DNA of 64,000 nucleotides, from the IMG/VR virus record IMGVR_UViG_3300031787_000065, positions 1 through 64,000 of that record; one strand, given 5' to 3'. Source of the stretch: a virus. A program made the position numbers and the translations under genes. Below, piece after piece: positions 278-58,861 of the stretch; the first letter of the stretch is position 1, and every line of letters begins with the position of its first letter. Under the pieces are notes generated by a model. That model was not told the DNA's origin and made no database searches. It saw only the letters and a list, made by a program, of their open reading frames with translations.

Positions 278-293
278 CGTGTATAGTATTGTG
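278..293 (+). promoter_or_regulatory. putative phage (late-type) promoter motif CGTGTATA-N6-TG
   Basis: One of six intergenic copies of (C/A)GTGTATW-N6-TR, each oriented toward the downstream gene. Confidence 0.6.
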
Positions 294-321
294 TATCTCC
301 GTCCCTTTATGGAAACACAAT

Positions 322-2894: not shown

Positions 2895-2896
2895 AT

Positions 2897-3919: not shown

Positions 3920-3946
3920 ACTTAGATTTTTTTTACCAGTTTTTAT

Positions 3947-3975
3947 TCCTCCATCGTGTATAATACGGTGGAGGA
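3947..3975 (+). promoter_or_regulatory. RBS-occluding hairpin overlapping the CGTGTATA promoter motif
   Basis: TCCTCCATCGT(gtataat)ACGGTGGAGGA: 11-13 bp stem pairing the GGAGGA SD of ATG 3985; motif at 3955-3962. Confidence 0.75.
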
Positions 3976-3984
3976 TGAATTAAA

Positions 3985-4845
3985 ATGAAAATCTACATTT
4001 ATGGTTTATACAAGGCTAATTTTGACTATACTACTAACAGTATAGATTCGGGATTATTTTATATAGGAATCACAAAAGACATAAAAACAAGAATATCATC
4101 ACATAAAAGCGCCGATGCAAATCCCTTAAAAAAAGCGTATATGAATAAATATGGATTTTTTGTAAGAGTTTTATACGAATGCTCTTCATATGAAGAGGCA
4201 TTAGAAAGAGAAAGTTTTCTAATTAGATGGTTTGGGAAAATATCAGATGATACTGGCATATTAACAAATATACTTATAGAATCTACAGATATATGTACAT
4301 ATAATCTTGGACAAAAATTTTCTTCAGACCACAAAGCAAAAATGTCTAATGCTTGCTCAACAAGGGGCGATTCATATTGGCAAGAACAAAGAGAAAAGAG
4401 GCTATCTTTGCCTCTAGACGAAATACATAAAATTTTAAAAGAATGGGAAGAGTCTTTTCCAGTAAATAAAAATATCTGCAAAAAATATGGCATTAAGCAA
4501 AATGTTTTTAATTGGTGGATCAGAAAATATAGACCAGATTTAAGAAATCTGACATTTGAAAATAGAAAAAAACATATAGAAAAAATGAATTCATTAGGGC
4601 TAAGCCAAATAGACTATTCAAAATTAATTGGAGTTGATCATAGAACTGTATCTCTATGGTATTGCAAATATGTAAGAGACAATATAGAAATTAAGCCCAA
4701 AAAATCTGTTAAAGATTTAGAATATAAAAAACAAAAATATGAAGAATGGATGAGTTCTGGTTTGTCAAAACGTGATTTCTGTAGTAATAATAATATTAAC
4801 TATAGCTCATTTAAAGCTTGGAAAAAGTACTATGAAGAATATTAA
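3985..4845 (+). CDS. GIY-YIG homing endonuclease with NUMOD3-like and HTH DNA-binding modules
   Basis: YIYGL...FYIGIT...R...H, E..ALERESFLI, GILTN; FSSDHKAKMS (NUMOD3-like); C-terminal HTH-like repeats. Confidence 0.85.
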   Translation: MKIYIYGLYKANFDYTTNSIDSGLFYIGITKDIKTRISSHKSADANPLKKAYMNKYGFFVRVLYECSSYEEALERESFLIRWFGKISDDTGILTNILIESTDICTYNLGQKFSSDHKAKMSNACSTRGDSYWQEQREKRLSLPLDEIHKILKEWEESFPVNKNICKKYGIKQNVFNWWIRKYRPDLRNLTFENRKKHIEKMNSLGLSQIDYSKLIGVDHRTVSLWYCKYVRDNIEIKPKKSVKDLEYKKQKYEEWMSSGLSKRDFCSNNNINYSSFKAWKKYYEEY

Positions 4846-4847
4846 AA

Positions 4848-5057
4848 ATGAACCTATACCAAAAATGGATTAACCATTTAAGAGACAATCATATGACTTA
4901 CCGTGAGCATCTAATGTTCGCGGTGGGTCATGGGTTTCTTTGCTGTATAGCTGGCATAATGTTAATAATACACGGATTTCTTCCGTGTTTTTTTGAACAC
5001 ACAGGGTCAAGTTTAGTTAGAAAATTAAAGATATCATTTGACAAACATAGAAGGTGA
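4848..5057 (+). CDS. small membrane protein, DUF6356-like
   Basis: HL...MTYREHLMFA...IIHGFLPCFFEHTGS pattern around a hydrophobic segment. Confidence 0.65.
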   Translation: MNLYQKWINHLRDNHMTYREHLMFAVGHGFLCCIAGIMLIIHGFLPCFFEHTGSSLVRKLKISFDKHRR

Positions 5058-5059
5058 CA

Positions 5060-5088
5060 TTGCGTTTGGTTGCGGTTTTGAGTATAAT
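5060..5088 (+). promoter_or_regulatory. sigma70-type promoter upstream of the DNA polymerase genes
   Basis: TTGCGT (5060-5065), 17 bp spacer, TATAAT (5083-5088); AAGGAG SD before TTG 5121. Confidence 0.7.
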
Positions 5089-5120
5089 CTGTTGCACACG
5101 GTTGATAAAGGAGTTGACAT

Positions 5121-6740
5121 TTGAACTGGTTCCCTCTTAAAAATTTGACACACTATAGTTTGCTAAAAGGTTTTTCTAAACCAGAAGAACTTGCTACAAA
5201 GTGTAAAGAAAATGCTTATCCCGCCTGTGGGTTATGTGATTATAAAACAATATCTGGAGCAGTAGCTTTTTATCAAGCTTGTAAAAGCTCTGGAATTAAG
5301 CCCATTATTGGATGCTCATTTGATGGGTATATTCTCTTTGCTAAGAATAAAAATGGTTGGCACGATTTGATAGAGCTTGTATCGTCAATAGACTCGGACG
5401 GCTCTTTATCTAATGATATATTGAACAAGGTGCTAAAGGGCAATAACTTAATAAAGTTATCTGATACTCCCACTTCATCTATGCCAATCAGTTATTATAC
5501 AAAGCAAAGTGATGCCATATACCATAGAATTCTTTTATGCTCAGAGATGAAAACAACGTTGCCCAAAATACACAAACAAATCAGAAAAGATAAGAATAAT
5601 AGCATAAATGTTGATTCATCATTTCCCAAAGAACACTATGATAAATTAAACTATTTTCTTTCGGATAAGTTTTACGTGCTGAATAATGAAGAGTCTAAAG
5701 ACTTAGACACAAAACAATTAGAGGAAATATACAGCCAGTGTGAAGATTATAATATTCTAAATAAGCCCATGTTACCAAAGTTTGACTGCCCAAGAGGACT
5801 ATCAGAAGAAGATTACCTTAAAGAATTGTGCAGAGTAGGATGGAAAAAGCTTTTAATACAAACTGGTAAGGTAAAAGATCCAGATAAGAAAAAGCTATAT
5901 GCAGATAGATTTAATGAGGAATTAAACGTTATAAAAGACGCTAATCTGTTCGGATACTTTCTCATTGTGCAAGATATTATCAGCTATGTTAATAAGCAGG
6001 GGTGGTTGTCTGGACCCGGAAGAGGCAGTGCCGCTGGTTGCTTAATATCATACTTAATTGGTATCACGCAGATTGACCCAATTGAATATGACTTACTATT
6101 TGCACGATTTTATAATGCGGGAAGAAACACTGCGGATCACGTATCTTTGCCAGATATTGATATGGACGTTCCCGGCAAACGACGCGACGAAGTTATTGCT
6201 TATTTAAAGAATAAGTATGGACATGAGCATGTTAGCCAAATGATCACATTTGGCAGACTGCAAGGACGAAGTGCCATTAAAGAAGTATTAAGAGTACATG
6301 AGGCTTGTTCGTTCACTGAAATGAATGCTATTACAAAGAATGTACCAAATGAAGCAGAGATTTCAGATCAATTAGCAGACATGGAAGACGAAGATAGATC
6401 AATCATAAGATGGGCATTAATAAATAGGCCGCAGGAACTACAAGATTTTTGTTCTATTAATGAAAACGGAGAGCTTGAAGGTCAGTATGCTGAATATTTT
6501 AAACAAGCTATTGAGATAGAAGGCACATTCAAAACTCAAGGTAAACACGCTGCCGGTGTTGTAATTTCGGCAAAGCCGCTACAACAAGTTTGCCCCATGT
6601 CTAGACAAAGAGACTCTGATGAAAAAATTGCAGGATTAGAAATGGCTGATCTAGAAGCTTTGGGCCATGTAAAGTTCGACGTTTTAGGACTTTCGCTTCT
6701 TGACAAGATAATGTACATAAAGGAGATAATCAATGGCTAA
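5121..6740 (+). CDS. dnaE: DNA polymerase III alpha, N-terminal half (degenerate PHP plus catalytic palm)
   Basis: THYSLLKG, GPGRGSAAG, LLFARFYN, PDIDMD, HAAGVVI, KFDVLGL; ends just after the third catalytic Asp. Confidence 0.93.
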   Translation: MNWFPLKNLTHYSLLKGFSKPEELATKCKENAYPACGLCDYKTISGAVAFYQACKSSGIKPIIGCSFDGYILFAKNKNGWHDLIELVSSIDSDGSLSNDILNKVLKGNNLIKLSDTPTSSMPISYYTKQSDAIYHRILLCSEMKTTLPKIHKQIRKDKNNSINVDSSFPKEHYDKLNYFLSDKFYVLNNEESKDLDTKQLEEIYSQCEDYNILNKPMLPKFDCPRGLSEEDYLKELCRVGWKKLLIQTGKVKDPDKKKLYADRFNEELNVIKDANLFGYFLIVQDIISYVNKQGWLSGPGRGSAAGCLISYLIGITQIDPIEYDLLFARFYNAGRNTADHVSLPDIDMDVPGKRRDEVIAYLKNKYGHEHVSQMITFGRLQGRSAIKEVLRVHEACSFTEMNAITKNVPNEAEISDQLADMEDEDRSIIRWALINRPQELQDFCSINENGELEGQYAEYFKQAIEIEGTFKTQGKHAAGVVISAKPLQQVCPMSRQRDSDEKIAGLEMADLEALGHVKFDVLGLSLLDKIMYIKEIING

Positions 6741-7413
6741 TAGGGACTATATTGTATTCGACTTTGAAACTGGTTCTCGTAATCCACACAAAACACAGCC
6801 AACGCAAATAGCTGCATTAGCTCTTGATGGAAGAAATTTTGCTGTGAAGGGTCAATTTAACAGTGAAATTAGACCCATATTTGATGATGAAGAAGCCATA
6901 GCGGCTGGATATGATCCAATTGAAGACGAAGCACTAAAACTTACTGGCAAAACAAGAGAAAAACTAGCAGAGGCTCCACACGTTAAGGCGGTATGGTCTA
7001 AGTTTACAAAATTTGTTAGTCAGTATAACTGGAAGGGTGACGCTTTCTTTAATCCTATTCCGGTTGGTTTTAATATCCTCGGCTTTGATATGATTATCAT
7101 AAACAGACTCTGTAGGGAGTTTGGGCCTTGGGATAAGGAAAGAGAACAGCAGAAGATATTCAGTAAAGTTTATAAGATAGATATTATGGATAATATATTT
7201 GCGTGGACAGAAAGCGATCCATCAGTACGATCAATCAGTATGGATGCCATGCGAGAAAGAATGGGTCTTAGCACAGAAAACGCTCACGACGCTTTGCAAG
7301 ACGTAAAGGACGAAGCTAATATCTTTATTAAGCTAATGAAGACACATAGATCAGTATATCAGAATATTACATTTGATAAAGCTTTTGCAAATGGTGGATT
7401 ATATGTCAAGTAG
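6733..7413 (+). CDS. DEDDh 3'-5' exonuclease (DnaQ/epsilon-like)
   Basis: ExoI FDFETG, ExoII GFNILGFD, ExoIII HDALQD; own AGGAG SD. Confidence 0.9.
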   Translation: MANRDYIVFDFETGSRNPHKTQPTQIAALALDGRNFAVKGQFNSEIRPIFDDEEAIAAGYDPIEDEALKLTGKTREKLAEAPHVKAVWSKFTKFVSQYNWKGDAFFNPIPVGFNILGFDMIIINRLCREFGPWDKEREQQKIFSKVYKIDIMDNIFAWTESDPSVRSISMDAMRERMGLSTENAHDALQDVKDEANIFIKLMKTHRSVYQNITFDKAFANGGLYVK

Positions 7414-8980
7414 TGTAGATATCAGCTATAATGATGCTCAAACTTGGAAGCTATTTGCAGAAGGCAAAACCAAGGGCATTTTTCAGCTAGAAAGCAATCT
7501 TGGAAAGTCTTGGTCTAAAAAGCTAGCACCAACTAGCATAGAAGAATTATCTGCACTTATCGCTATTATTAGGCCGGGAACATTAAAGGCTTATATAGAT
7601 GGCAAGAGTATGACGCAAATCTATGTAGATAGAAAGCATGGAAGAGAAGAAGTATCTTACTTGCACCCATCTCTAGAAGACATATTAAAGCCAACATATG
7701 GTGTTCTAGTATACCAAGAACAATCCATGCGTATAGCTGAGAAAATTGCTGGATTTAATCTTCAAGAGGCTGACTTGCTTAGAAAAGCTATTGGTAAGAA
7801 AAAGGCTGATCTTATGAATCAAGTAAAAAAGTCTTTTATAGAGGGTGCAGAAAAGAGGGGCATTGTGACTAAAGAAGAGGCGGAAGAAATCTTTGGATGG
7901 ATTGAAAAGTCTTCTAGATATGCTTTCAATAAGTCTCACAGTGTATCATACGCCGTATGTTCTTACTGGAGTGCTTACCAAAAGGCTCATCATACTAAAG
8001 AATTCTTTTTATCTTACTTGTATTATGCCAATGAAAAACAAGACCCTCATCAAGAAATATATGAGTTAATTTCGGAAGCTAAACTTTTTGATATTGGTGT
8101 TAAGACTCCCAATATAGTTAAATTTGGTTCCAAGTTTAATATTGACAAAGATACAATCTTCTTTGGTATTAAAGATGTTAAGTCATTAACTGGAAAAACT
8201 GGAGATAAAGTCATAGAAGCAATAGCGGAAGCGGAAGCAAAGCTGAGCAAGAAAGTCAGTAATTTTTCTTGGCTTGAAGTGTTACTATTTTTCTCTCCAC
8301 TAATTAGTTCAACAGCTTTTAAGGCTTTAGCTTCTATAGGATTTTTTAGAGGATTTAAGGATAGAATAACAAGAAATAAAGCTTTATATGACTATGAAAT
8401 TTTTAGAACTTTGACAAAAACAGAACAATCTTGGTTAGAAAATAATTATCAATCTAAAAAGTGGACAAATTTTATAGACTGTTTGAAAGATTTATCTCCA
8501 GTGAAAAAAGAGGGCGGTGGAACTAGTAGTATTGTCCGAAAGCAAGCTATAGAAAATGAGATTCAGCTATTAATTAGTCCACCGTATTCTCTAGAAGATG
8601 ATCCAAGCTGGGTTATTGATCAAGAAGTAAAATTCTTGGGATGTCCAGTTAGTCTAACAAAAATAGAAACATCTGACACTTCTGCGGCCAATACAACTTG
8701 TAAAGAAATTGTCAATGGTAAAAAGGGGAAGGACTTGTGCATAGTAGCCAATGTCCAAAGAGTTTCGGATTATAAGATTAAAAAGGGCGAGTCTAAGGGG
8801 CAAACCATGTCATTTCTAACAATAGAGGATGACACATGCTTACTAGACAGCGTAATCGTTTTCCCAAAAGTAAAAGATAAATATAAGTATATTTTATATG
8901 AGGGTAATAATTTAATTTTCTGTGGTTCTGTAAGTGACCAAGATAGCTCTTTTATTGTCAATCAGATTCATGAAATTTAG
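7403..8980 (+). CDS. dnaE: DNA polymerase III alpha, C-terminal half (fingers, HhH, OB)
   Basis: GIFQLES, IRPG, TYGVLVYQEQ, ADLLRKAIGKKK, YAFNKSHS; C-terminal OB region (MSFLTIEDDT..VIVFP). ATG 7403 overlaps the end of the exonuclease gene. Confidence 0.93.
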   Translation: MSSSVDISYNDAQTWKLFAEGKTKGIFQLESNLGKSWSKKLAPTSIEELSALIAIIRPGTLKAYIDGKSMTQIYVDRKHGREEVSYLHPSLEDILKPTYGVLVYQEQSMRIAEKIAGFNLQEADLLRKAIGKKKADLMNQVKKSFIEGAEKRGIVTKEEAEEIFGWIEKSSRYAFNKSHSVSYAVCSYWSAYQKAHHTKEFFLSYLYYANEKQDPHQEIYELISEAKLFDIGVKTPNIVKFGSKFNIDKDTIFFGIKDVKSLTGKTGDKVIEAIAEAEAKLSKKVSNFSWLEVLLFFSPLISSTAFKALASIGFFRGFKDRITRNKALYDYEIFRTLTKTEQSWLENNYQSKKWTNFIDCLKDLSPVKKEGGGTSSIVRKQAIENEIQLLISPPYSLEDDPSWVIDQEVKFLGCPVSLTKIETSDTSAANTTCKEIVNGKKGKDLCIVANVQRVSDYKIKKGESKGQTMSFLTIEDDTCLLDSVIVFPKVKDKYKYILYEGNNLIFCGSVSDQDSSFIVNQIHEI

Positions 8981-9039
8981 TTTGATAGTGTGTTTTTTTC
9001 TTTTGTAGTTGCTAATATATTAAGATCAAGGAGAGTTCA

Positions 9040-9351
9040 ATGAATTTATGTTCTTTTACTGGCTACTTGGTTGAAAATCCAAGAATTACTATGTCTGGAG
9101 ATATAGTTAGGGCCGACTTTGTTATGGTTGTCTATACTTACCGCAAAACTAAGAGCGGTGAAAAGAATAGAATACCAACATATTTACAGTGCGAAGCTTG
9201 GCATACCGGCGCAGAAACCTTAGAAAAATATGCCATAAAAGGCACTAAGTTGACTGTTCACGCTTCTGCAAAAAATGTTTCTAAAGATAATAGTAGTATT
9301 GTTTTTAGAATTAACGAATTTGATTTTTGTCAACAGGATTGTGATGACTAA
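9040..9351 (+). CDS. ssb: single-stranded DNA-binding protein (short OB fold)
   Basis: MN...TGYLVENP...TYLQCEAW...AE.LEKY..KG..LTV. Confidence 0.8.
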   Translation: MNLCSFTGYLVENPRITMSGDIVRADFVMVVYTYRKTKSGEKNRIPTYLQCEAWHTGAETLEKYAIKGTKLTVHASAKNVSKDNSSIVFRINEFDFCQQDCDD

Positions 9352-11011
9352 TATGAGAAAAAAAAGAATACTGTTTTGTAGCGAAGCCACGTTTCTAAAT
9401 ACTGGATACGCAACATACACTAGAGAAATTCTAAATTATCTACACAGCACAGGCAAGTACGAACTGGCTGAATTGGCATCTTATGGAGAAAAGAATGATC
9501 CAAGAGCCAATGGAACCCCTTGGAAGTTCTATGGGGTTGTTCCCGGAGAAAATGCTTCTCAGCAGGAAAAGGAACAGTATCAAAACCATCCAACATCTCA
9601 ATTTGGTGAACTAGCATTTGAACCAGTATGTCTAGACTTTAAGCCAGACATAGTATGTGATATTAGAGATTTTTGGATGTTAGACTTCCAAGAAAGATCT
9701 CCATTTCGACCATATTTTAAGTGGTGTATTATGCCCACAGTTGACGCTAGACCTCAAGCCAGACAGTGGGTGTCCACTTATCAAACAGCAGATGCCTGTT
9801 TAACATATTCCGAATGGGCTGGGGAAGTATTAAAAGAACAGTCTGGTAATAAGATTAATTACATTGGAATATCTCCACCATCAGCACATTCAGCATACCG
9901 TCCTATAGAAGACAAGGCAGCTTTAAGAAAGAGCTTTGGCCTTGATCCTAATCTAAAGATTATTGGTACGGTAATGAGAAATCAAAGAAGAAAGCTGTAC
10001 CCAGACCTGTTTGAAGCTTTTAAGCTTTTATTAGATAAAGTTCCAAACCCTCAAGATTATGTTCTATACTGCCATACCAGCTATCCAGATTTAGGATGGG
10101 ACATACCAGAGTTATTACATCAATATCAGTTATCTTCTAAAGTATATTTTACATATATTTGTGGTCAAACTGGAAAGCCTTTCGTATCACTGTTTCGCGG
10201 TGCAGTTACTCAGTCTCCATACACAGGGCAGTATGGTTCAGTATTGTCTAATGTAAAGATGGGAGCAGAATATGAAGATCTAGCCAAGATAATGAATCTT
10301 TTTGATATTTATGTTCAATATGCTAACTGTGAAGGTTTTGGTTTGCCCCAAGTAGAAGCTGCGGCTTGCGGTGTGCCAGTTATGTCTACTGATTATTCAG
10401 CTATGGAGAGTGTGGTTAGAAACTTAAATGGTATACCAGTTAAACCAAAAGCTCTTTATAAGGAGCTTGAAACTGGATGTTTACGAGCCGTGCCAGACAA
10501 TGAACTCGCTGCCAACCTTCTTATCGAATTCTTTAATATGCCAGATGAAGATAGACAAAAACTTAGTATTCAAACTAGAGAGTTGTTTTTGAAGCATTAT
10601 CAGTGGGATCAGAGCGGTCGTGCTTGGGAAACATATTTTGATAGTATAGAATTGCCAAAAGACAATGAGGGATGGAATTCTCCAGCAAGAATATTCCAGC
10701 CAGCAAATAAACCAGAAAAAGTACCAGAAGATGCTAGTCCACAACTGTTGGCAAAATGGTTAATATCAAATGTACTAAGAGAGCCAGAGAGACTAAATAC
10801 TTATTTAGAGTCTAAACTTGTTAGAGATTTAACTTATAAAACTCATACATCTATTACTGGTGGTATGTATTTCAATGAGAGTTCAGCGGCTTTTGATGGT
10901 AAGCAAACAAGAAATCACTTTGATTTTAATATAGCTTATGAGCATATGCTTGCCCTGTGTAATCGCAGAAATTTTTGGGAACAAAAGAGAATAGAGGCTA
11001 TTAAGCGATGA
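9344..11011 (+). CDS. glycosyltransferase, GT4/GT-B fold with C-terminal extension
   Basis: TGYATY, GTVMRNQRRK, EGFGLPQVEAAACGVPV; start 9344 or 9353. Confidence 0.9.
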   Translation: MTNMRKKRILFCSEATFLNTGYATYTREILNYLHSTGKYELAELASYGEKNDPRANGTPWKFYGVVPGENASQQEKEQYQNHPTSQFGELAFEPVCLDFKPDIVCDIRDFWMLDFQERSPFRPYFKWCIMPTVDARPQARQWVSTYQTADACLTYSEWAGEVLKEQSGNKINYIGISPPSAHSAYRPIEDKAALRKSFGLDPNLKIIGTVMRNQRRKLYPDLFEAFKLLLDKVPNPQDYVLYCHTSYPDLGWDIPELLHQYQLSSKVYFTYICGQTGKPFVSLFRGAVTQSPYTGQYGSVLSNVKMGAEYEDLAKIMNLFDIYVQYANCEGFGLPQVEAAACGVPVMSTDYSAMESVVRNLNGIPVKPKALYKELETGCLRAVPDNELAANLLIEFFNMPDEDRQKLSIQTRELFLKHYQWDQSGRAWETYFDSIELPKDNEGWNSPARIFQPANKPEKVPEDASPQLLAKWLISNVLREPERLNTYLESKLVRDLTYKTHTSITGGMYFNESSAAFDGKQTRNHFDFNIAYEHMLALCNRRNFWEQKRIEAIKR

Positions 11012-12132
11012 AATTATTATTTATAGGTCATTACAAAGAGGGAACCGGATGGTCACAAGCCGCCTTAAATTCTATAAAGGCTTTAGACTCTACGGATCTA
11101 GATGTTGTTTGTAGAAATATTAAGCTCACTAACGCTAATCCAACCATTGATCCTCAAATCTTAGGATTAGAAATGAAGGATTTGGAAGATGTAGATTATT
11201 GTATACAAAATGTATTACCGCACCACATGGTGGGAACTAGTAAGTTTAAAAAGAATATAGCCTATTTTGTTTCAGAGTCCAACACTTTAAGACATAATGG
11301 GTGGCTTGATAATCTCAGAGTGATGGACGAAGTGTGGATTCCTAACTATGAGTTAAAACAAATGCTACTAAACGATGGCATAGAAGAATCAAAAATAAGA
11401 GTAGTTCCATACGCTTTTGATATATTAAAGTATAGCAGAAAGTATCCAAAGATAAATTTTTATGATAAGAAAAATACATTTAAGTTCTATTATATAGGAG
11501 AACTGAATGATCGTAAGAACATTGAGTCTATAATTAGATGTTTTCACAGCGAGTTTGAAAATTACGAACCAGTATCTTTAGTTCTTAAAGTAAAAAGACA
11601 TGGAATATCTAGCGGGGACTTAGAGAAGTACATGACCAATCTTTCTAAATCTGTAAAAGAAGAGCTTCGTATCTATAAGAACACAGAGGATTATCTACCA
11701 GAAATTGTAATTGCTAACAATATATCGGACGATGACATACAAGTATTACACAATACGTGTGACTGTTTTGTTGGACCAACTCATGGCGAGGGATGGTCTA
11801 TTCCAGCTTTTGAAGCAATGGCTTATGGCAAAACGCCCATTTGTAGCAATGAGGGTGGACCAAAAGATTTCATAGATGCAAACAATAAATCAACTGGGTG
11901 GCTAGTTAATGGTGTTAAAGATATTTGTACACATTCAGATCCAGCATTTCCAGAACTTTTTACCGGAAGAGAAGAGTGGTTCCATCCTAGCGAATCTGAA
12001 ATTAAAAAAGCTATGAGATTCTATTATGAGAATAAAGATAATATTGATAGGTCTGCTGGACTAAGTAGAGCAGAATGTTTTTCTTATAGCAATATTGGAC
12101 AGCTTATTATGGAGATTCTAAATGATAAATAA
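11008..12132 (+). CDS. glycosyltransferase, GT4/GT-B fold
   Basis: TGWSQAA, DEVWIPN, DRKNI, EGWSIPAFEAMAYGK. Confidence 0.9.
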   Translation: MKLLFIGHYKEGTGWSQAALNSIKALDSTDLDVVCRNIKLTNANPTIDPQILGLEMKDLEDVDYCIQNVLPHHMVGTSKFKKNIAYFVSESNTLRHNGWLDNLRVMDEVWIPNYELKQMLLNDGIEESKIRVVPYAFDILKYSRKYPKINFYDKKNTFKFYYIGELNDRKNIESIIRCFHSEFENYEPVSLVLKVKRHGISSGDLEKYMTNLSKSVKEELRIYKNTEDYLPEIVIANNISDDDIQVLHNTCDCFVGPTHGEGWSIPAFEAMAYGKTPICSNEGGPKDFIDANNKSTGWLVNGVKDICTHSDPAFPELFTGREEWFHPSESEIKKAMRFYYENKDNIDRSAGLSRAECFSYSNIGQLIMEILNDK

Positions 12133-13126
12133 TTCTGTGAGCAGGCTAATAGATATAACTAATAGCGGAAAAGAACAAAAAGAAAAGTATAATATACTTA
12201 CCTTTCCAACTCATGAAAGGTATGAAACTCAGCTTTGTAAAACGGGTCACAATTTTTATTCCTTTCATTTGCCAAATTTGAAAAAGTGGAATGCTGCACA
12301 GTTGACAGTGCCAGATAATTATTATATTCTTCCAGAGCAAGAATTGTGTTCATATGTGAAGTATGATTTTATTTTATCTCAAAGTAAGTTCTGGCAATTC
12401 CAAGTTGCTGTAGAGCTTAACCAGAGGCTTAATTTGCCTATGATTTCGCTAGAGCATACTCTTCCAACTCCGCAAACCATTAGTGAAAAAAATCTATCAT
12501 TAATGAAGAACATGAGGGGAGATGTTAATGTGTTTATATCTGAATTTTCTAAGAACGCTTGGGAAATCAATATGAATTCAATAATTATACATCATGGAAT
12601 TGATTCTGAAACTTTCAGACCAACAGGCTGTGAGAAAAACAATTCTGTTTTAACGGTCGCTAACGATTTTGTAAATAGAGATTATTGTCTTAATTATAGT
12701 GGATGGAAACGGGTTACTCAAGATTTAGAAACCAGACTAGTTGGCGACACAAAAGGCTTATCTGTATCGGCATCTTCAACGGAAGATTTGGTTGATGAGT
12801 ATAATAAGTGTGCAGTTTATTTCAACAGTTCTACTCTAAGTCCAATACCAACCTCTTTATTAGAAGCTATGTCTTGTGGCTGTGCCGTGGTATCAACGGC
12901 AACCTGTATGATACCAGAAATTATAGAGAATGGAGTAAACGGATTTATTTCTAATGATGAGCGGCAGTTAAGATCATATATAGAATTATTGCTTAATGAC
13001 AAAGAGGCTGCTATTAAGATTGGCAATAATGCTAGGCAAACTATAACAGAGAAATTCTCAGAACAAAAGTTTATTAATAATTGGAATCACGTATTCGACA
13101 AAGTTTATGAGGTATCACGCCGATGA
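12122..13126 (+). CDS. glycosyltransferase, GT4/GT-B fold
   Basis: HHGIDSETF, SPIPTSLLEAMSCGCAVV, EIIENGVNG. Confidence 0.88.
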   Translation: MINNSVSRLIDITNSGKEQKEKYNILTFPTHERYETQLCKTGHNFYSFHLPNLKKWNAAQLTVPDNYYILPEQELCSYVKYDFILSQSKFWQFQVAVELNQRLNLPMISLEHTLPTPQTISEKNLSLMKNMRGDVNVFISEFSKNAWEINMNSIIIHHGIDSETFRPTGCEKNNSVLTVANDFVNRDYCLNYSGWKRVTQDLETRLVGDTKGLSVSASSTEDLVDEYNKCAVYFNSSTLSPIPTSLLEAMSCGCAVVSTATCMIPEIIENGVNGFISNDERQLRSYIELLLNDKEAAIKIGNNARQTITEKFSEQKFINNWNHVFDKVYEVSRR

Positions 13127-13557
13127 AAATCTATATAACAGAACATCTAGATAAAGCAATAGAGCATTATAAAATCATCCCAATTCTATATGGGAAGATT
13201 GATATGATTAGCATACCAAATAATTCTGCTACAGAAGTAGTAGCTATAGATGCTCTTGATAGCATCCCGTCTAACTTATTAGTAGAATTTGTTCAATCTG
13301 TGAGACAAAAAATGAGGGTGGGAGCTTCTTTAGTCATGGGCGGCGTAGAGCTTTCTGCTTTAGCTAGAGATATCATAAATAATAAAATATCAACTCAGGA
13401 CTTTAACGAGCTAATATTTAATAAGCGCGGTATATATAGATCACTAGATATTGTGGATCTATTAAAGCAAGCAGGACTAGCTATTGATAAAGTAACAATA
13501 AGAGGTTATCACTATGAAATCGCCGCTTCAAGACCAAATGATTCAAACAAGTTGTAA
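13123..13557 (+). CDS. methyltransferase-fold protein, probably degenerate
   Basis: IPNNSATEVVAIDALD...VRQKMRVGASLVM resembles the C-terminal class I MTase motifs, but there is no GxG SAM-binding loop. Confidence 0.5.
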   Translation: MKIYITEHLDKAIEHYKIIPILYGKIDMISIPNNSATEVVAIDALDSIPSNLLVEFVQSVRQKMRVGASLVMGGVELSALARDIINNKISTQDFNELIFNKRGIYRSLDIVDLLKQAGLAIDKVTIRGYHYEIAASRPNDSNKL

Positions 13558-14269
13558 AAATTGTATTTTTGCACTTTATGAAGATCAAACTCAAACCGGA
13601 TGTTATGCGAGTAGAATATATAAATATCAAAAATTAGATAAAGTTGTAGAAGCCTATGACAATGATAAAGAGTTTTATGTTGTCAAAAGCTTTTGTAATA
13701 TGTATAGAAACTCTTCATGGAATAATGGAGAAGCTGATTCTCAAAAAGCTTATGAAGAAGCCAGTATAGCTTTTGACATTTATATAGACTGTTCAGAATT
13801 AAATGAGAATAATGTAGCAAAACTCACAGAGTTTGTTACTAAGCAGAAGTATTATAAGGATAAATATAGGATAACACTGTACCACGGTCACGACGCATCA
13901 AAAGAAACAAGAAAGCTAGTATTACATCTATTTACTTTAAGTAATCATACTATATATATATCTTCTTGCGATAATAAAGAAAACTATTTACATAATCAAT
14001 TGTTACAGTCTAAGGGGTCATACGCTATTACTTGTAGTGTTGATTCTGATTATTATGATAATATCTTGTTAGATATAAACAGTGTCATAAACGAGGATCT
14101 AAAAAAGTGCATAGCTATTAAATATAGCGACATTGTGGCAATTTCTACAGCAGCATATAAGGTAGAATTTTTTACTATCAACCTAAACGAATATTCACCG
14201 ATAGTAGACTCATTATTGAGTAGGATAGATAATACAACGCTATTCTTTGAGATTAAAGATGAAAACTAA
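13514..14269 (+). CDS. hypothetical protein with N-terminal 4-Cys motif, possibly GT-associated
   Basis: SCKNC...GC...FCNMYR; lies inside the overlapping GT operon. Confidence 0.45.
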   Translation: MKSPLQDQMIQTSCKNCIFALYEDQTQTGCYASRIYKYQKLDKVVEAYDNDKEFYVVKSFCNMYRNSSWNNGEADSQKAYEEASIAFDIYIDCSELNENNVAKLTEFVTKQKYYKDKYRITLYHGHDASKETRKLVLHLFTLSNHTIYISSCDNKENYLHNQLLQSKGSYAITCSVDSDYYDNILLDINSVINEDLKKCIAIKYSDIVAISTAAYKVEFFTINLNEYSPIVDSLLSRIDNTTLFFEIKDEN

Positions 14270-15002
14270 ATGTGTAACATCAACAAGAAGAAACATCAAG
14301 GGGCAACCTTGTAAAACTGAACTTATTAGTGTGATTTTATTGTGTGATTCGCCTGGATACAGAATGAAATCTTATGGCCCACTGCCCCTAATAAATATAG
14401 CGAGTCATAAACTAATAGATATGCAGATAAAAGCTATACAACAAACGCTTTTAAATTTTGAAATTATACTGTGTGTTGGCTTTGATTCTGATAAAATAGT
14501 AAAATATATTAGAAGTAAATACTCAAACTTACCCATTAGGATTGTGGAGAATCAGCTATTTAACTCATCTAACAATTGTGAAAGTGCCAGATTAGCACTA
14601 AATAACACTCTTAATAATAAAGTGTTAATATGTGATGGCAACCTTTTATTCACCAACAAAACGCTTTCACTTATTAATTACGCTCAAACGTGCGTTCTTA
14701 CAGAAACGAACCCGTGTGAGAATTTAGAGGTAGGCATAAACGTGGACGCTAATGACGAGGCCCAGTATTTTTGTTTTGGGGCGCATTCTATATGGTCAGA
14801 AATTATCTTTTTACATAATGAAGATATAATAGAAGTATTGAGAAGGAACCTAGCATCACAAGATAGTAAAAATAAGTTTTTATTTGAAGCGATTAATGAA
14901 TTAATTAAAACAAAACATAAAATTAAATGCATAAAAAATAAATATCCTATAAATAGAATCAATAATATTAAAACATATCACGCTATAAAAGGTGGAAAAT
15001 GA
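14259..15002 (+). CDS. sugar nucleotidyltransferase-fold protein, possibly degenerate
   Basis: SVILL..PGYRMKSYGP.PLI, EIILCVGF, IVEN..F..SN, LICDGNLLF. Confidence 0.7.
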   Translation: MKTKCVTSTRRNIKGQPCKTELISVILLCDSPGYRMKSYGPLPLINIASHKLIDMQIKAIQQTLLNFEIILCVGFDSDKIVKYIRSKYSNLPIRIVENQLFNSSNNCESARLALNNTLNNKVLICDGNLLFTNKTLSLINYAQTCVLTETNPCENLEVGINVDANDEAQYFCFGAHSIWSEIIFLHNEDIIEVLRRNLASQDSKNKFLFEAINELIKTKHKIKCIKNKYPINRINNIKTYHAIKGGK

Positions 15003-15868
15003 AGTTTGTAATTAGCAATTATGGCTCGACTACTCAAACGGAGTGCTTTTATTTTAACGCTGCTCTGAACCTAATAAACGGCTGTAGTTCAGCAATGTGG
15101 GATAATAAAACAATAAGTGCTTATGATATGTTTGATGCTATAAAGCCAGATTATTTCATAACGCATATAAATACAATTTTTACAGATGTTCTACATTACA
15201 TAGAAGAAAATGGAGGTCCATCTCTAATAATAAATGCTACTGGACTTAAAGCCGATAATATCAAAGAAATAGAATCAGTTTTGCTATCTAAAAAAATACC
15301 AATATCTTTTTTCTATAGCAATTCTGATGATCAAGTTTACAAATTATCTAAAACTAATATGATTTGTATTCCTTTGGGAGCAGACGTATTTTTGAATACG
15401 AGTGGAGCTGACTTTAATATAAATAAATGCTTTTTGATTAATAAAGAAGATCAACTAAAGTCATCAGACGGTACTTATCACAATGTTTCTACTGGAGAGG
15501 CAGATAAAAATATTGGAGACATACATCTAGGCGTATCGGAATTAGCACAAATATATAAGAATTATGACGAAATAGTATTTAGATTTTATGGGTCTATGCT
15601 GCCCCAATCCTTGTTTGACGCTATATACTACGGAAATAAAGTCTATTACGATCTAGAAGACGGGGAAACTCAGGGCGTTGTGGAAAGTAAGCTAAAGAAA
15701 ATATTCAAAGTAGACGATTTAACAAATGTTAAAGAAATCAAGAATATTGTAAAAAATAAACACACATGTTTACACAGAACAAAATCCTTGCTGTCTCAGC
15801 TTCCATCACATAACATTATTAATGGGTTAGATCAGATCATAGACTATCAAAAGGGGCTAACAACATGA
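14999..15868 (+). CDS. GT-B/CgeB-like glycosyltransferase-related protein
   Basis: AYDMFD..KPDYFI, IPLGAD and C-terminal KHTCLHR...LL. Confidence 0.5.
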   Translation: MKFVISNYGSTTQTECFYFNAALNLINGCSSAMWDNKTISAYDMFDAIKPDYFITHINTIFTDVLHYIEENGGPSLIINATGLKADNIKEIESVLLSKKIPISFFYSNSDDQVYKLSKTNMICIPLGADVFLNTSGADFNINKCFLINKEDQLKSSDGTYHNVSTGEADKNIGDIHLGVSELAQIYKNYDEIVFRFYGSMLPQSLFDAIYYGNKVYYDLEDGETQGVVESKLKKIFKVDDLTNVKEIKNIVKNKHTCLHRTKSLLSQLPSHNIINGLDQIIDYQKGLTT

Positions 15869-16635
15869 GCGTAACAGTTGTTCTTAGCGGATTTAAAAGA
15901 CCACACGTTTTAAAACAACAGTTTGAAGCTATCAAGAGGCAAACTGTTGGACAGGTGCCAATCATGTTGTGGGTAAATCTAGTAGATCAAAATATTAAAT
16001 TTGATAATGATATACTAAATAGTTGCGAAACTATTATATCTAATTCAGATTATGGTAGCTGGGGTAGATTCTGTATAGCTCTTAACGCTTCAACGCAGTA
16101 TATTTGTGTTATAGATGATGACACTATACCGGGAAGTAAATGGCTTGAAAATTGTTTTAATACTATGGAAACTCATCGCGGAGTTTTAAGTACAAGGGGC
16201 GTAATAGCTGACAAGATTTATGATTTAGAATATCCAGCACCACGTAGCTATACTCCTATAGGGTGGTGCAATCCAAACGAACAGGTTATGCGTGTAGATA
16301 TGGGTTGCCACTCATGGTTCTTTGAAAAAGATTGGTTACGAGCTTTCTGGATGGAAATGCCATTAACCGTACCAAAAAGATATGGTGAAGATACTCATAT
16401 ATCATATGTAGTAAAAAAACACTTTGGGCTAAATACATATGTTCCACCGCACCCAAAAGACGATATAGAAATGTGGGGTTCTATGCCAGAAACAGCTATA
16501 AAGTATGGCGAAGAACCAGTGGCTATTTCTATGGATTATAATGCTAATATTGGAATGAATAAATATTGGAATTTTGTTAGGTCAAATGGCTATAACATCA
16601 TAGCCCACGAAACAAAGTCGGAGAAAACAGAATGA
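15865..16635 (+). CDS. glycosyltransferase, GT-A fold
   Basis: VTVVLSGFKR, WGRF, YICVIDDDTIPG (DxD), GEDTHIS. Confidence 0.85.
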   Translation: MSVTVVLSGFKRPHVLKQQFEAIKRQTVGQVPIMLWVNLVDQNIKFDNDILNSCETIISNSDYGSWGRFCIALNASTQYICVIDDDTIPGSKWLENCFNTMETHRGVLSTRGVIADKIYDLEYPAPRSYTPIGWCNPNEQVMRVDMGCHSWFFEKDWLRAFWMEMPLTVPKRYGEDTHISYVVKKHFGLNTYVPPHPKDDIEMWGSMPETAIKYGEEPVAISMDYNANIGMNKYWNFVRSNGYNIIAHETKSEKTE

Positions 16636-17120
16636 ATATAGGGATATATGTTAATTCTCTTAGCGATGCCAACCTAGAGTATATTTCTAACTTTATTAAC
16701 GAGTCTATAGAACATCAATATGCTTCTGATGCTAGCATATTCTTTGATGATGTAGGTTACAATCCTCATAAGGTGCAGTGCGGCATATTTAACGCTGCTG
16801 ATATTTGGAATTTTCATGGAGTTCTTATTACAACGTCGTTAGATACTCTTTCTAGTGCTAAAAATATAGTAAACAATATTGATTTATATTATTATTATGG
16901 ATATGAAGATATTTCAAAAATAAACCTATTAAATCTAATAGAGAAAACAAAGAATGTCAAAGTAATATGTAACAACGAGACAGACAGCTTAGAATTCTAT
17001 AGAAAAACTGGAAAAAAACCATCCGTTATATCTGAATGCTATAAAGGTTTAGCGGCACAACTACAAGGGCACGAAAATGAATACTCAAAAAATACTACAA
17101 ATGTATATAGAGCAAAATAA
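16632..17120 (+). CDS. hypothetical protein, possibly a stand-alone GT-B half domain
   Basis: MNIGIYV...LITTS...YYYY...KVICN Rossmann-like pattern; last gene of the GT block. Confidence 0.4.
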   Translation: MNIGIYVNSLSDANLEYISNFINESIEHQYASDASIFFDDVGYNPHKVQCGIFNAADIWNFHGVLITTSLDTLSSAKNIVNNIDLYYYYGYEDISKINLLNLIEKTKNVKVICNNETDSLEFYRKTGKKPSVISECYKGLAAQLQGHENEYSKNTTNVYRAK

Positions 17121-17844
17121 AAGCACCTATGAAATAGCAGAACATTTTAAAACTTATCCCAACAAGATTAGAAGAATTCTTATTAAGCAAGGAATTGAGC
17201 TAAAGACTAAAAGCGAGGCTCAGAAAAATGCTATAGATCGCGGTGTGGCCATACATCCAACGAGCGGCAAAACAAGAACAGCAGAAGAAAAACTTAAGAT
17301 TAGCTCTAGTCTACAAAAATATTGGGATAATATGTCTGATGAAGACTATGAACAAAAAATTCATCAGTCTAGGGAGCGTTGGCATAATATGTCAGCAGTT
17401 GAAAGAGCCAATATGATGGAAGCTGCTATAAAAGGTATACAATTAGCTGGTAAAGAGGGTTCTAAATTAGAAAAGTTTTTATACTCAGAGTTAACCGCCG
17501 CTGGATATAAAATAGATTTTCATAAAAAGCAGCTTATCCAGAATGAAAACTTAGAAATCGACATGTACGTTCCCAAGCTCAAGACTATAATAGAGATAGA
17601 CGGGCCATCCCACTTCCTTCCAATATGGGGAGAAGAAAAGCTTCAAAAGCAAATTAAGGCAGATGCCCATAAAACAGGTTTAATTTTGAGCAAAGGCATG
17701 GTAATTATACGTGTTAAAAATATATCAGACGCCCAATCGTTAGCGTCCAAAGAAAAATTGCGTCTTGACATTTTGAATTGTCTTGGTAAAATAGACAAAA
17801 ACTTTCCACCACAATCAGAAAGGCTTATTGAGATAGAAATATGA
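17077..17844 (+). CDS. HTH plus DUF559/Vsr-like endonuclease
   Basis: N-terminal KSTYEIAE HTH, RTAEEKLKIS (NUMOD3-like), SKLEK...EIDMYVP...IIEIDGPSH. Confidence 0.75.
   Translation: MNTQKILQMYIEQNKSTYEIAEHFKTYPNKIRRILIKQGIELKTKSEAQKNAIDRGVAIHPTSGKTRTAEEKLKISSSLQKYWDNMSDEDYEQKIHQSRERWHNMSAVERANMMEAAIKGIQLAGKEGSKLEKFLYSELTAAGYKIDFHKKQLIQNENLEIDMYVPKLKTIIEIDGPSHFLPIWGEEKLQKQIKADAHKTGLILSKGMVIIRVKNISDAQSLASKEKLRLDILNCLGKIDKNFPPQSERLIEIEI
17765..17792 (+). promoter_or_regulatory. sigma70-type promoter inside the 3' end of the endonuclease gene
   Basis: TTGACA (17765-17770), 16 bp spacer, TAAAAT (17787-17792) preceded by TGn; about 50 bp before ATG 17841. Confidence 0.5.
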
Positions 17845-18608
17845 GTACAACAATCGTTGAAACTGAAAACTTGTTTGCAGAAGTTGAGCTAGCTACGCCA
17901 AGCAATACCGATACTAGAACAAAAGATGTGGTGGTGTCTGACGCTCCATCAATGCTATCTGCTGAATGGCACGACTACGCAATGACGCTATTCCATCCAT
18001 CAGAAATGGTAGATGGTCACCCTCTCGTTGCTGGACTGCGAAGAGTATCAGAGGTTGTTTTGGGACCAATCATGTTTAGTGGCCCAACGCAAGTGTTTCC
18101 AGTACAGAGAGAAGATCATCATGGTAGAGCTACCGTAGTATTTACAGTAGAATTTGCTAATGGAATGAAGTATTCAGAAGTTGCAGACTCTTGGGAGGGT
18201 AATACTGATGACATGTTTTGTGCATTCGCTGTAGCTATTGCTAGCACAAGAGCAGAAGCCAGAGCGTTAAGAAAAGCTCTCAAGATTAAGGGTGTGGCGG
18301 CAGAAGAACTAACTAAGAAAGATACCGCCAAGATAGTGCGAGATATCTCTTCTACCAAGACCGCTAGCGAGGGTGAATATAATGAACAAAGTCGTATGAG
18401 CGATGCTCAGTACAATTTTATTGATGTTAAGTGTAAACAGCTAAATATCAATGGTCAGAAGCTATTTAAGAATTTCAATGTAGATAGCGGAAAGAAGGTT
18501 TCTAAGAAAACGGCAAGTGATATCATTGATGCCCTCAATGACTATCAAAGAGATAAGAGTATGATTCCAAAAGATATTATGGGCTATGAACAGGAGTGGC
18601 GTAACTAA
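17841..18608 (+). CDS. probable Rad52/Sak-like single-strand annealing protein
   Basis: RATVVFTV...AIASTRAEARALRKAL core; C-terminal SDAQ..FI...ASDIIDAL helical module. Confidence 0.55.
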   Translation: MSTTIVETENLFAEVELATPSNTDTRTKDVVVSDAPSMLSAEWHDYAMTLFHPSEMVDGHPLVAGLRRVSEVVLGPIMFSGPTQVFPVQREDHHGRATVVFTVEFANGMKYSEVADSWEGNTDDMFCAFAVAIASTRAEARALRKALKIKGVAAEELTKKDTAKIVRDISSTKTASEGEYNEQSRMSDAQYNFIDVKCKQLNINGQKLFKNFNVDSGKKVSKKTASDIIDALNDYQRDKSMIPKDIMGYEQEWRN

Positions 18609-18943
18609 TGAAACTAACATATACTACTAAAAACGGCAGAATTAATGTAGAGGTAGAAGGAGAGTCCCAAAAGGATTTGTTTCTAGAGCTTAGTAAATTT
18701 CAAGAAGTGTTTGAAGAAACTAAGTGTGGAAAGTGCGGTTCGGAAGATCTGAGATTCGTAGTTAGGACAGTAGAGGATAATCAGTATTACGAGCTACGAT
18801 GTATGTCTTGTGGTGCTAGATTAGCATTTGGTGTACACAAGAAGGGTGGCGGGTTATTCCCCAAGCGTAAGGATAACGATGGAAAGTGGTTGCCAGATAA
18901 TGGATGGGTTAAGTGGAATCCAAAAACAGAGCAATCGGAATAA
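18608..18943 (+). CDS. zinc-ribbon protein
   Basis: CGKC...CMSC. Confidence 0.65.
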   Translation: MKLTYTTKNGRINVEVEGESQKDLFLELSKFQEVFEETKCGKCGSEDLRFVVRTVEDNQYYELRCMSCGARLAFGVHKKGGGLFPKRKDNDGKWLPDNGWVKWNPKTEQSE

Positions 18944-18953
18944 AGGAGAGTTT

Positions 18954-19241
18954 ATGAAGAATTTACTAGGCGTATTCATTCTATTACTTGCTAGCGTTTC
19001 TTCTAATTGTTACGCTAATAATGTTATATATGTTACGCCACCACAACCAGTTCCAGTTCTACAGGTAATGGTTTATCAAGCTCCAGCTTATACCGTCATG
19101 GTTCCAGTTGTAGTGCAACCAGTACCAGTGGTAGAACAAAGAGTGGTATGGGGATATCCTTATCAACCCATGATAGTTCCAGTGGCTCAATATGGCCATT
19201 GGGGATATGATAGGCGTTGTAGGCTTATCAATCATTATTGA
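18954..19241 (+). CDS. small exported Pro/Val/Tyr-rich protein
   Basis: AAGGAG SD before ATG 18954; signal peptide MKNLLGVFILLLASVSSNCYA. Confidence 0.65.
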   Translation: MKNLLGVFILLLASVSSNCYANNVIYVTPPQPVPVLQVMVYQAPAYTVMVPVVVQPVPVVEQRVVWGYPYQPMIVPVAQYGHWGYDRRCRLINHY

Positions 19242-19247
19242 AAAGTT

Positions 19248-19281
19248 GGGGGTAGCCTAAAAACTACCCCCTTTTTCTTTT
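19248..19281. terminator. intrinsic terminator between the convergent arms (possibly bidirectional)
   Basis: GGGGGTAG-cctaaaaa-CTACCCCC followed by TTTTTCTTTT; AAAA on the other side. Confidence 0.85.
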
Positions 19282-19284
19282 CTA

Positions 19285-19998
19285 TTATAGATATTCTACG
19301 GTAAAGTATAGACCGTATTGAGTCTTGCTACCAATGGTAACTGGCTCAGAACTTAGAGCAACGTACCAATCGTGCCTAGCAGCAGTGTGTAAACTGCCAT
19401 TATTACTATTATAACCAAGGGCAACGCTAGTATCTTGAGCATTAGTATTCTTACCACTAGCTCCTGGAGAAGATGTTAAGGTCATGTCTGTCATAGCGTT
19501 TACTGGATCAAATTCATACCAAGCATTTTCTATTCTTCCGCGATGGCTCAAATTAGATACCGTTTGTAGTGTAGCTGGGTGTCTAGACTCATAAACATAT
19601 GTGACCACGCCGCTAGCGTGATTATTAATGTTATTTCGGTCAAATATACGAAGCTTACAATTCTGAACTTTTACAGGTTCAGAGTGAGTGAATCTAATAT
19701 TTAGAGGGCATAAATAGTTAGGTAATTTATCTAGATCTATAGCACTAGCCCCATTTACACTAACAGTGCCAGCGGTAGATAGGGTTCCACTAGATACTAA
19801 AGCTGTATTATTAAGCCTAGCGCCCTCTGATGTGCCGTTAGCATTAGTAATAAAGGTTGTTGTTTGCTGAGTCCCAACGGGAACTGAAATACCAAAACCG
19901 TTGCCGTAGAATCCTACGCCAGAACCGGCTGAGTGATTAATTAGCTCGCCGTCTCCACTTTGGTCTTTAATATTAGCATAAAATTTGATTTCAGCCAT
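19285..19998 (-). CDS. putative virion structural protein
   Basis: Beta-rich Gly/Ser/Thr/Asn composition; last gene of the structural arm; own promoter motif and GGAG SD. Confidence 0.6.
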   Translation of the reverse strand: MAEIKFYANIKDQSGDGELINHSAGSGVGFYGNGFGISVPVGTQQTTTFITNANGTSEGARLNNTALVSSGTLSTAGTVSVNGASAIDLDKLPNYLCPLNIRFTHSEPVKVQNCKLRIFDRNNINNHASGVVTYVYESRHPATLQTVSNLSHRGRIENAWYEFDPVNAMTDMTLTSSPGASGKNTNAQDTSVALGYNSNNGSLHTAARHDWYVALSSEPVTIGSKTQYGLYFTVEYL

Positions 19999-20024
19999 AG
20001 ATTTCTCCCTATTTTATATGGTTC

Positions 20025-58778: not shown

Positions 58779-58808
58779 ATAAAATTCCCGTTAAAATATG
58801 TGGAAATC

Positions 58809-58824
58809 CATATAAGTATACACT
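58809..58824 (-). promoter_or_regulatory. phage promoter motif variant AGTGTATA-N6-TG
   Basis: Minus strand AGTGTATACTTATATGG, intergenic, upstream of the adaptor gene. Confidence 0.5.
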
Positions 58825-58861
58825 CAATCCCTATCGCTCTCTCTTGGAGTCCACATAGTTA

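Follow-up and report, generated by a model that had tools for sequence, protein, structure and literature searches.

Gene content of the block

We analysed the first 64 kb (64,000 nucleotides; hereafter the window) of IMGVR_UViG_3300031787_000065, a 79.4-kb phage fragment from IMG/VR with a completeness of ~50%. Its plus strand carries a block of nine open reading frames (ORFs) spanning positions 9344-17120, in which every ORF overlaps its neighbour and most encode glycosyltransferases (GTs) or proteins that resemble them. An earlier note, made from the sequence alone, had described nine overlapping genes here and proposed that they glycosylate the virion; the ORF coordinates and pairwise overlaps confirm this arrangement. 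The nine genes are as follows.

9344-11011, plus strand: GT4a, 555 aa, a GT4 enzyme with GT-B fold (PF00534 49.5 bits; phrog_2170)
11008-12132, plus strand: GT4b, 374 aa, GT4 (PF00534 55.3 bits)
12122-13126, plus strand: GT4c, 334 aa, GT4 (PF00534 62.9 bits, PF13524 31.5 bits)
13123-13557, plus strand: methyltransferase-like (MTase-like) protein, 144 aa, with a weak profile match to residues 89-159 of PfPMT (E 0.006)
13514-14269, plus strand: Cys4/GT-A-like protein, a zinc-ribbon N-terminal domain fused to a GT-A fold
14247-15002, plus strand: nucleotidyltransferase of the sugar- or alcohol-phosphate type, LicC/IspD/GlmU-like
14999-15868, plus strand: CgeB-like GT (Glyco_trans_1_2), the last gene of the conserved core
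15865-16635, plus strand: GT-A (GT2-like) enzyme, PF00535 22.0 bits, just below the 23.3-bit cut-off
16632-17120, plus strand: stand-alone GT-B half protein, similar to the Rossmann half of GT4 enzymes that is N-terminal (acceptor-side)

All three GT4 enzymes named in the earlier note score above the Pfam gathering cut-off of PF00534 (26.4 bits). GT4a has an extra C-terminal helical domain (about residues 435-555), and its EX7E motif (E330/E338) is invariant in 40 orthologues. Foldseek assigns its AlphaFold2 (AF2) model (pLDDT 88.6) a two-Rossmann GT-B fold, with PDB matches 3oy2, 6kih, 3c4q and 6n1x at E 1e-18 to 1e-14. The top match is a chlorovirus NY-2A GT (3oy2, E 4.5e-18), followed by sucrose-phosphate synthase (SPS), MshA and BshA. 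In BFVD, GT4a matches the viral GT M1I9Z9 (533 aa, root-mean-square deviation 3.1). In GT4b the first Glu of the EX7E motif is invariant and the second variable, and in GT4c only the second (LLEAM) is conserved. The NCBIfam models nearest to GT4c are exopolysaccharide (EPS), glycogen and BshA-type GT4s, all far under their cut-offs.

Three further assignments of the earlier note are upheld. The profile of 14247-15002 matches LicC (1jyk) over its full length at 5.6e-9, IspD at 1e-6 and GlmU at 2e-4, in agreement with a nucleotidyltransferase fold. The signature loop AAGxGxRMKSYGPK is kept in divergent relatives only; in the clade of the window the loop reads CDSPGYRMKSYGPLP, with the first Gly residues and the Lys replaced. 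The CgeB-like 14999-15868 has no direct Pfam match, and its profile finds no meaningful match in PDB. Its residues 1-283 align by hhalign with residues 1-340 of a cluster from relatives (99.2% probability, E 2.8e-19), and that cluster matches PF13524 at 8.5e-23. The GT-A enzyme 15865-16635 has an invariant DDD motif (D84, D85, D86) and profile matches to heparosan synthase (1.1e-6), GalT1 (5hea, 0.0097) and SpsA.

Several members of the block look catalytically degenerate, a feature that the earlier note does not mention. The methyltransferase fold claimed for 13123-13557 holds in part: the protein retains only motif II/III-like segments, corresponding to the phosphoethanolamine N-methyltransferase region that gives the weak PfPMT match. 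Motif I (GxGxG), the S-adenosylmethionine-binding loop, is present in none of 23 orthologues, and hhalign against a cluster of bona fide class I methyltransferases gives just 2.5% probability. Judged from its sequence, 13123-13557 is probably a degenerate, non-catalytic methyltransferase-like protein.

The two proteins that the note had listed as unknowns can now be described further. In 13514-14269 the invariant residues (C14, C17, C30, C61, R34 and R65) all fall within the first 82 positions. The AF2 model (pLDDT 91.2) matches the GT2 domains of BcsA, PcManGT, TarS, TarP and SpsA in Foldseek at 1e-5 to 1e-4. The DxD position varies among orthologues (SVD-SD, SG-ES, NAT-NM and others), leaving no conserved DxD, and the protein is likely a pseudo-glycosyltransferase or scaffold. 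For 16632-17120, the ESM Atlas model (pTM 0.82) matches GT4 structures over residues 1-150 with TM scores of 0.73-0.75; the profile of this protein finds no meaningful sequence match in PDB. We considered the adjacent 17077-17844 as the missing C-terminal half of this protein and rejected it, as it encodes a helix-turn-helix (HTH) and DUF559/Vsr-like endonuclease instead.

A fixed core and a hypervariable cassette

We gathered 80 related IMG/VR loci through GT4c and clustered their ORFs. The order GT4a, GT4b, GT4c, MTase-like, Cys4/GT-A-like, nucleotidyltransferase, CgeB-like is near-invariant, and one branch carries an extra GT2 between the Cys4/GT-A-like and nucleotidyltransferase genes. The split DnaE, exonuclease and SSB genes immediately precede this core of the first seven or eight genes, and the order of the core persists where DnaE identity is down to ~40%. 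The most conserved gene of the block is GT4a (76-80 of the 80 loci, median identity 65%), and its conservation equals that of the DNA polymerase. GT4b is present in 78 loci, GT4c in 76 and the MTase-like core gene in 72.

GT4a also occurs in all eight large contigs defined by the major capsid protein (MCP) whose length suffices to include it. Protein clusters related to GT4a number more than 3,000. In three loci (L142, L145 and L146; e.g. L146:4907-8887), the GT4a orthologue extends to 1327 aa and contains two intein-like insertions with Hint, Intein_splicing, LAGLIDADG and Hom_end domains. Inteins are unusual for a glycosyltransferase and suggest that GT4a is essential. Taken together, the conservation of GT4a, its inteins and its presence in 8/8 contigs point to a phage-intrinsic function.

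The 3' side of the core is hypervariable: 0 to ~10 genes follow there, from a pool of more than 100 clusters, and the block reaches up to about 18 genes in relatives, compared with nine here. The cassette genes encode NAD-dependent epimerase/dehydratases (38 loci), two clusters of GT2s (29 and 17 loci), FkbM methyltransferases (18 and 4 loci), GT8-like proteins (17 loci), class I methyltransferases (12 loci) and DegT aminotransferases (10 loci), as well as UDP-GlcNAc 2-epimerases and GT-D-like and RXYLT1-like proteins. The cassette of the window is among the smallest; its sole gene is the GT-A at 15865-16635, which is found in only 14 of the 80 loci. Where loci reach far enough, a homologue of 16632, then homologues of 17077 and 17841, close the cassette, and the 16632 homologue follows very different cassettes in 22 loci.

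The endonuclease gene at 17077-17844 is conserved, not sporadic, right after the cassette in 22 loci, and a role for it in cassette exchange is conceivable. The product of 17841-18608 (255 aa) is 73-90% identical among close relatives, which exceeds the conservation of its neighbours, and has no match in Pfam, PHROG or PDB.

For the 2-epimerase of the cassettes, the 120 closest relatives are confined to contigs no longer than 147 kb, and their identity falls off smoothly from 97 to 54%. This suggests a long-resident phage gene rather than a recent acquisition from a host. This layout, a fixed core next to a hypervariable cassette that conserved flanks enclose, matches that of surface glycans under diversifying selection. 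The gene content and this organisation in the 80 relatives support the earlier proposal of a multi-step, soluble glycan-building pathway.

Membrane proteins and DNA-modification enzymes

Every protein of the block is soluble. Across the 80 loci, the 1011 block ORFs include none with more than one predicted membrane segment, and no flippase, polymerase, initiating phosphoglycosyltransferase, ligase or ABC permease. Likewise, Pfam scans of 24 cassette proteins found no flippase, polymerase, initiating transferase or ABC-transporter family. With no polytopic membrane protein in the 1011 ORFs, the classical envelope-polysaccharide routes are not encoded. Classical export of an envelope polysaccharide is thus disfavoured, although use of the host machinery is possible.

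The known routes to glycosylated DNA all need a hydroxyl-bearing base, made by a ThyA-fold enzyme or by a C5-methyltransferase together with a TET-type oxygenase (PMC13326640; 10.1101/2023.12.21.572611). Synthesis of 5-hydroxycytosine (5hoC) by a ThyA-fold enzyme was described recently (PMC13326640). As the earlier note had reported, the window encodes no base-hydroxymethylase, and none is found in the complete relatives. Six-frame HMM searches of two complete and three partial related genomes detected neither PF00303 (the ThyA-fold synthases of 5-hydroxymethylcytosine (5hmC), 5-hydroxymethyluracil (5hmU) and 5hoC) nor PF00145 (C5-methyltransferase) in any of the five, and the positive controls were detected. 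PF12851 (TET/JBP) also gave no match in the five genomes, in a search without a positive control. ThyX is encoded in four of the five, including both complete ones. The absence of PF00303 and PF00145, together with ThyX, counts against DNA glycosylation by known routes.

Candidate acceptors in the virion module

The earlier note saw obvious O-glycan acceptor features in the outer virion proteins. This stands for runs of five to eight threonines (T5-T8), which within the record occur only in three tail-region proteins.

23653-28410, 28426-29268 and 29270-31114, minus strand: tail-region genes with T5-T8 runs, candidate acceptors by inference

The 280-aa product of 28426-29268 consists of 33% Ser+Thr. 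The claim does not stand for the 62073-62765 protein that the note had singled out: the Ser+Thr+Gly share of this protein (0.29) lies within the range of other virion proteins (0.2-0.38; enzymes have 0.15-0.20), and composition does not set it apart from fibrous virion proteins of the ordinary kind. A Ser/Thr-rich tail is lacking in the MCP.

Among relatives, poly-Thr or (Thr-Ser)n tracts occur in 37 ORFs from 21 of 80 MCP loci, all in the virion module, and in none of 1626 ORFs of the replication/GT loci. The homologue of the 1069-aa virion protein (58862-62071) is immediately followed by a variable insertion site, at about 15,000-20,000 in relatives L004-L079. Where occupied, it holds one to six extra ORFs, about half of them with poly-Thr or (Thr-Ser)n tracts of at least 24 residues.

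We also compared 20 IMG/VR contigs of at least 43 kb that contain (ACN)14 with 21 random contigs (L184-L263 versus L304-L383). In the poly-Thr set, 17/20 contigs have an in-frame T12 or longer, nine encode a GT2 and three a GT4, and no more than nine have a gene of either family; 4/21 random contigs encode a GT2, the only family searched there. The association of GT2 with poly-Thr is a non-significant trend (odds ratio 3.5, Fisher p = 0.10). Two of the poly-Thr contigs hold 6-7 GT2 matches each.

Interpretation of the pathway

We tentatively interpret the block as a cytoplasmic, stepwise pathway that glycosylates the phage's own virion proteins, an explanation whose chances we put a little short of even. 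The enzymes would decorate virion proteins before lysis, with fibres or other exposed tail or head proteins as the likeliest acceptors. The core would attach a conserved inner glycan to a protein acceptor and extend it, with GT4a as the catalytic anchor. The degenerate proteins may help to bind the acceptor or provide a scaffold, a role that GtfB plays for GtfA. The cassette would then add a strain-specific outer part, producing serotype-like variation of the particle surface. Virion glycosylation fits the gene content because phage particles, which form in the cytoplasm and leave by lysis, are accessible only to soluble glycosylating enzymes, as encoded here. The viral GTs that are the best fold matches of GT4a (3oy2 and M1I9Z9) and the confinement of Thr tracts to the virion module also count in its favour.

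Several observations weigh against this interpretation. The sugar-coat target is inferred from genes. The Ser-Gly sites on which the earlier note had placed the glycan coat are not there: no protein of the record contains an (SG)n repeat. The poly-Thr tracts, its other proposed sign of an acceptor, do occur in virion-module proteins but are not diagnostic of phage glycosylation, being common in viral contigs without GT genes. The variable insertion site is empty in the window (58778-58862), as in four relatives (51-bp gap). The block runs in the same direction as the DnaE, exonuclease and SSB genes, with no terminator between, an arrangement that also suits a DNA-directed function. Finally, the weaker fold matches of GT4a include a GT of Bacillus phage SP-15; the DNA of SP-15 is glycosylated, so the fold does not reveal the acceptor.

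A more specific version seems possible but rather doubtful to us. Here the conserved, pseudo-enzyme-containing core would lay an inner glycan on Thr-rich fibre proteins, and the O-antigen-like, swappable cassette would diversify the outer sugars into a serotype-like particle coat.

The same soluble GTs might instead remodel the host envelope, acting on undecaprenyl-phosphate-linked intermediates of the host at the inner membrane face. Host initiating, flipping and ligating enzymes would then alter lipopolysaccharide (LPS), capsule or teichoic-type glycans, for example blocking superinfection or re-adsorption. Peripheral enzymes without a membrane segment (WaaG, PimB and PglH) are indeed among the fold matches. 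The NCBIfam models that come closest, though all far under their cut-offs, are those of EPS, LPS and teichuronic-type GT4s and of PglH/PglI. The FkbM, DegT, epimerase/dehydratase and 2-epimerase content, in a cassette between conserved flanks, resembles O-antigen loci. We nevertheless regard envelope remodelling as unlikely. No membrane component is found among the 1011 ORFs. The core stays fixed at ~40% DnaE identity and hosts inteins, which is uncommon for an accessory gene that manipulates the host. The 2-epimerase family of the cassettes, on its phage-sized contigs, shows no sign of a recent bacterial origin. Known phage systems for envelope conversion (Gtr, TarP) consist of one to three genes and belong to temperate phages.

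Glycosylation of a modified base to evade restriction, as in T4, RB69, SP-15 and TET-associated pathways, appears improbable. In every relative the block is immediately preceded by the split DnaE, exonuclease and SSB genes without a terminator between, and multi-GT clusters with sugar-nucleotide genes are known to build di- and trisaccharides on DNA (PMC13326640; 10.1101/2023.12.21.572611). The SP-15 match of GT4a points the same way. However, PF00303 and PF00145 are absent from five genomes in searches with controls, as is PF12851 in a search without one, and ThyX implies ordinary thymine. The number and turnover of GTs, methyltransferases and aminosugar genes exceed those of any known DNA glycan. 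The best PDB fold matches of GT4a do not include T4 beta-GT, in contrast to what is reported for the DNA-acting GT-B enzymes of Pyle et al. Slightly less probable still is a free or non-virion product: the pathway would yield a soluble oligosaccharide, glycosylate a small molecule or a lipid, or act on a non-structural protein of the phage or host. All the enzymes are soluble, and the closest solved GT4 structures (MshA, BshA, sucrose-phosphate synthase and OtsA) act on small molecules; yet at least six transferases and a hypervariable tailoring cassette are hard to square with a small molecule, and the diversification pattern points to an exposed surface structure.

Comparison with known glycosylation systems

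The logic of the pathway is familiar. The novelty lies in its division into core and cassette, in the subunits that look like pseudo-enzymes and in how abundant the lineage is. In Bacillus, the spore surface is glycosylated in the mother-cell cytoplasm by SpsA-like GT-A enzymes, CgeB, DegT, epimerases and a nucleotidyltransferase. Serine-rich adhesins are glycosylated in the cytoplasm by GT4, GT-D, GT8 and GT2 enzymes (GtfA/GtfB, Gtf3, dGT1 and GalT1). The block shares with these systems a proposed sequential cytoplasmic glycosylation and a toolkit of GT4 enzymes with apparently non-catalytic GT-like partners. There are weak direct matches to GalT1 (5hea), SpsA, Gtf3_N and the CgeB family, and relatives of the window phage carry (Thr-Ser)n proteins. 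Unlike the block, the adhesin and spore-crust systems are bacterial and have known acceptors; the likeness is one of toolkit and cell biology, with the family threshold reached only by the CgeB-like domain.

Virion O-glycosylation in mycobacteriophages (Che8, Corndog and others) likewise involves phage-encoded, soluble GTs outside the structural module. These GTs, some of them accompanied by methyltransferases, probably act on capsid and tail proteins while these are still in the cytoplasm, according to the account of Freeman et al. 2023 given in PMC12619734. The same source describes glycosylation operons of two to four genes and glycans demonstrated on C-terminal tails. In contrast, the block has nine genes, a fixed core with a hypervariable cassette and degenerate subunits, and its glycan is a predicted one. 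Actinophage GTs share only 22-25% sequence identity with it.

Chloroviruses and mimiviruses glycosylate their capsids or fibrils independently of host export with GT-A, GT-B and methyltransferase activities. They encode dehydratases, aminotransferases and epimerases in clusters of clade-specific content (PMC9614988, PMC7019647). The block is similar in these respects, and GT4a finds its best fold match in a chlorovirus GT. Unlike the phage lineage, these are giant viruses of eukaryotes with partly scattered genes, and the likeness is one of fold only, at 15-17% identity.

Clusters for DNA glycosylation include the alpha- and beta-GTs of T4, the arabinosyl-5hoC pathway of RB69 and DLP3 (PMC13326640) and methyltransferase-TET-GT (MT-TET-GT) clusters (10.1101/2023.12.21.572611). 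They resemble the block in combining multiple GTs, sometimes with sugar-nucleotide genes, near replication genes. They differ in depending on a ThyA-fold synthase or on a C5-methyltransferase with TET, neither of which was found in the complete genomes of the lineage (the TET search having no positive control).

Genomic context and relatives

The block forms part of a longer co-directional array, with the following features.

289-19241, plus strand: gene array with nuclease, GT2, GIY-YIG, split DnaE/exonuclease and SSB genes, the nine-gene block and three more genes
2031-2894, plus strand: separate GT2 (PF00535 27.8 bits), adjoining a PD-(D/E)XK nuclease gene
5121-8980, plus strand: split DnaE and exonuclease, made up of a PHP/NTPase half, a DEDDh exonuclease gene and a finger/HhH half
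9040-9351, plus strand: SSB, directly 5' of the block
19248-19271, plus strand: intrinsic-terminator-like hairpin (8-bp stem, 6 GC pairs, T-run)

The separate GT2 at 2031, already recognised in the earlier note, has an orthologue in the complete relatives. The split of DnaE around the DEDDh exonuclease is kept in 76-79 of the 80 related loci. Between the ORF at 2837 and the N-terminal DnaE gene lies a GIY-YIG and HTH homing endonuclease (3985-4845) with no homologue in the 80 loci or in the complete relative; this mobile gene was probably inserted recently. A zinc-ribbon protein gene, following the conserved gene at 17841-18608, ends the array. The hairpin at 19248-19271 sits at the convergent junction with the structural genes and closes the array. 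Downstream of 4988 it is the sole plus-strand terminator-like site of comparable strength, weaker hairpin matches (5-8 pairs) lying at 10955 and 19208. With no comparably strong terminator before 19248, the replication genes and the GT block appear to form one co-directional array.

The capsid protein (MCP) is encoded at 62881-63888 on the minus strand. More than 597 IMG/VR contigs encode a capsid protein 85-99% identical to it, and a comparison with 50,697 deposited phage genomes gave no match. A nucleotide search with the GT block against the same 50,697 phage records also found no match; the closest proteins of cultured phages are GTs of Streptomyces and Flavobacterium phages (22-25% identity). 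The two complete relatives measure 166.6 kb (with terminal repeats) and 173.8 kb, and the former is collinear with the window from the PD-(D/E)XK nuclease gene to the structural module. The lineage is uncultured, aquatic and very widespread, with a genome of ~170 kb. In the complete relatives, a fourth GT4 gene (G002:C1:27365-28132, with orthologues in G001, G004 and G005) lies ~30 kb upstream of the block, beyond the fragment that contains the window. We considered whether the "Moraphages" (PMC12619734), which likewise have four core GT families, belong to the same lineage. They are T4-like, with a sheath, gp19, family A/B polymerases and genomes >200 kb, and were rejected because the window lineage has a split DnaE and ~170-kb genomes.

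Implications for phage biology

To our knowledge, phage-encoded glycosylation of particles has so far been known from a few actinophages and from giant viruses. In its organisation, a fixed core joined to a swappable cassette, the locus described here resembles the O-antigen loci of bacteria. If its target were DNA, a wholly new route of base modification would be implied. If virion proteins are the target, variable glycan coats would be widespread among environmental phages, with a bearing on adsorption, grazing, particle stickiness and host recognition. Should the cassette indeed build a serotype-like coat, this would be the first "phage serotype" system, in a globally abundant lineage.

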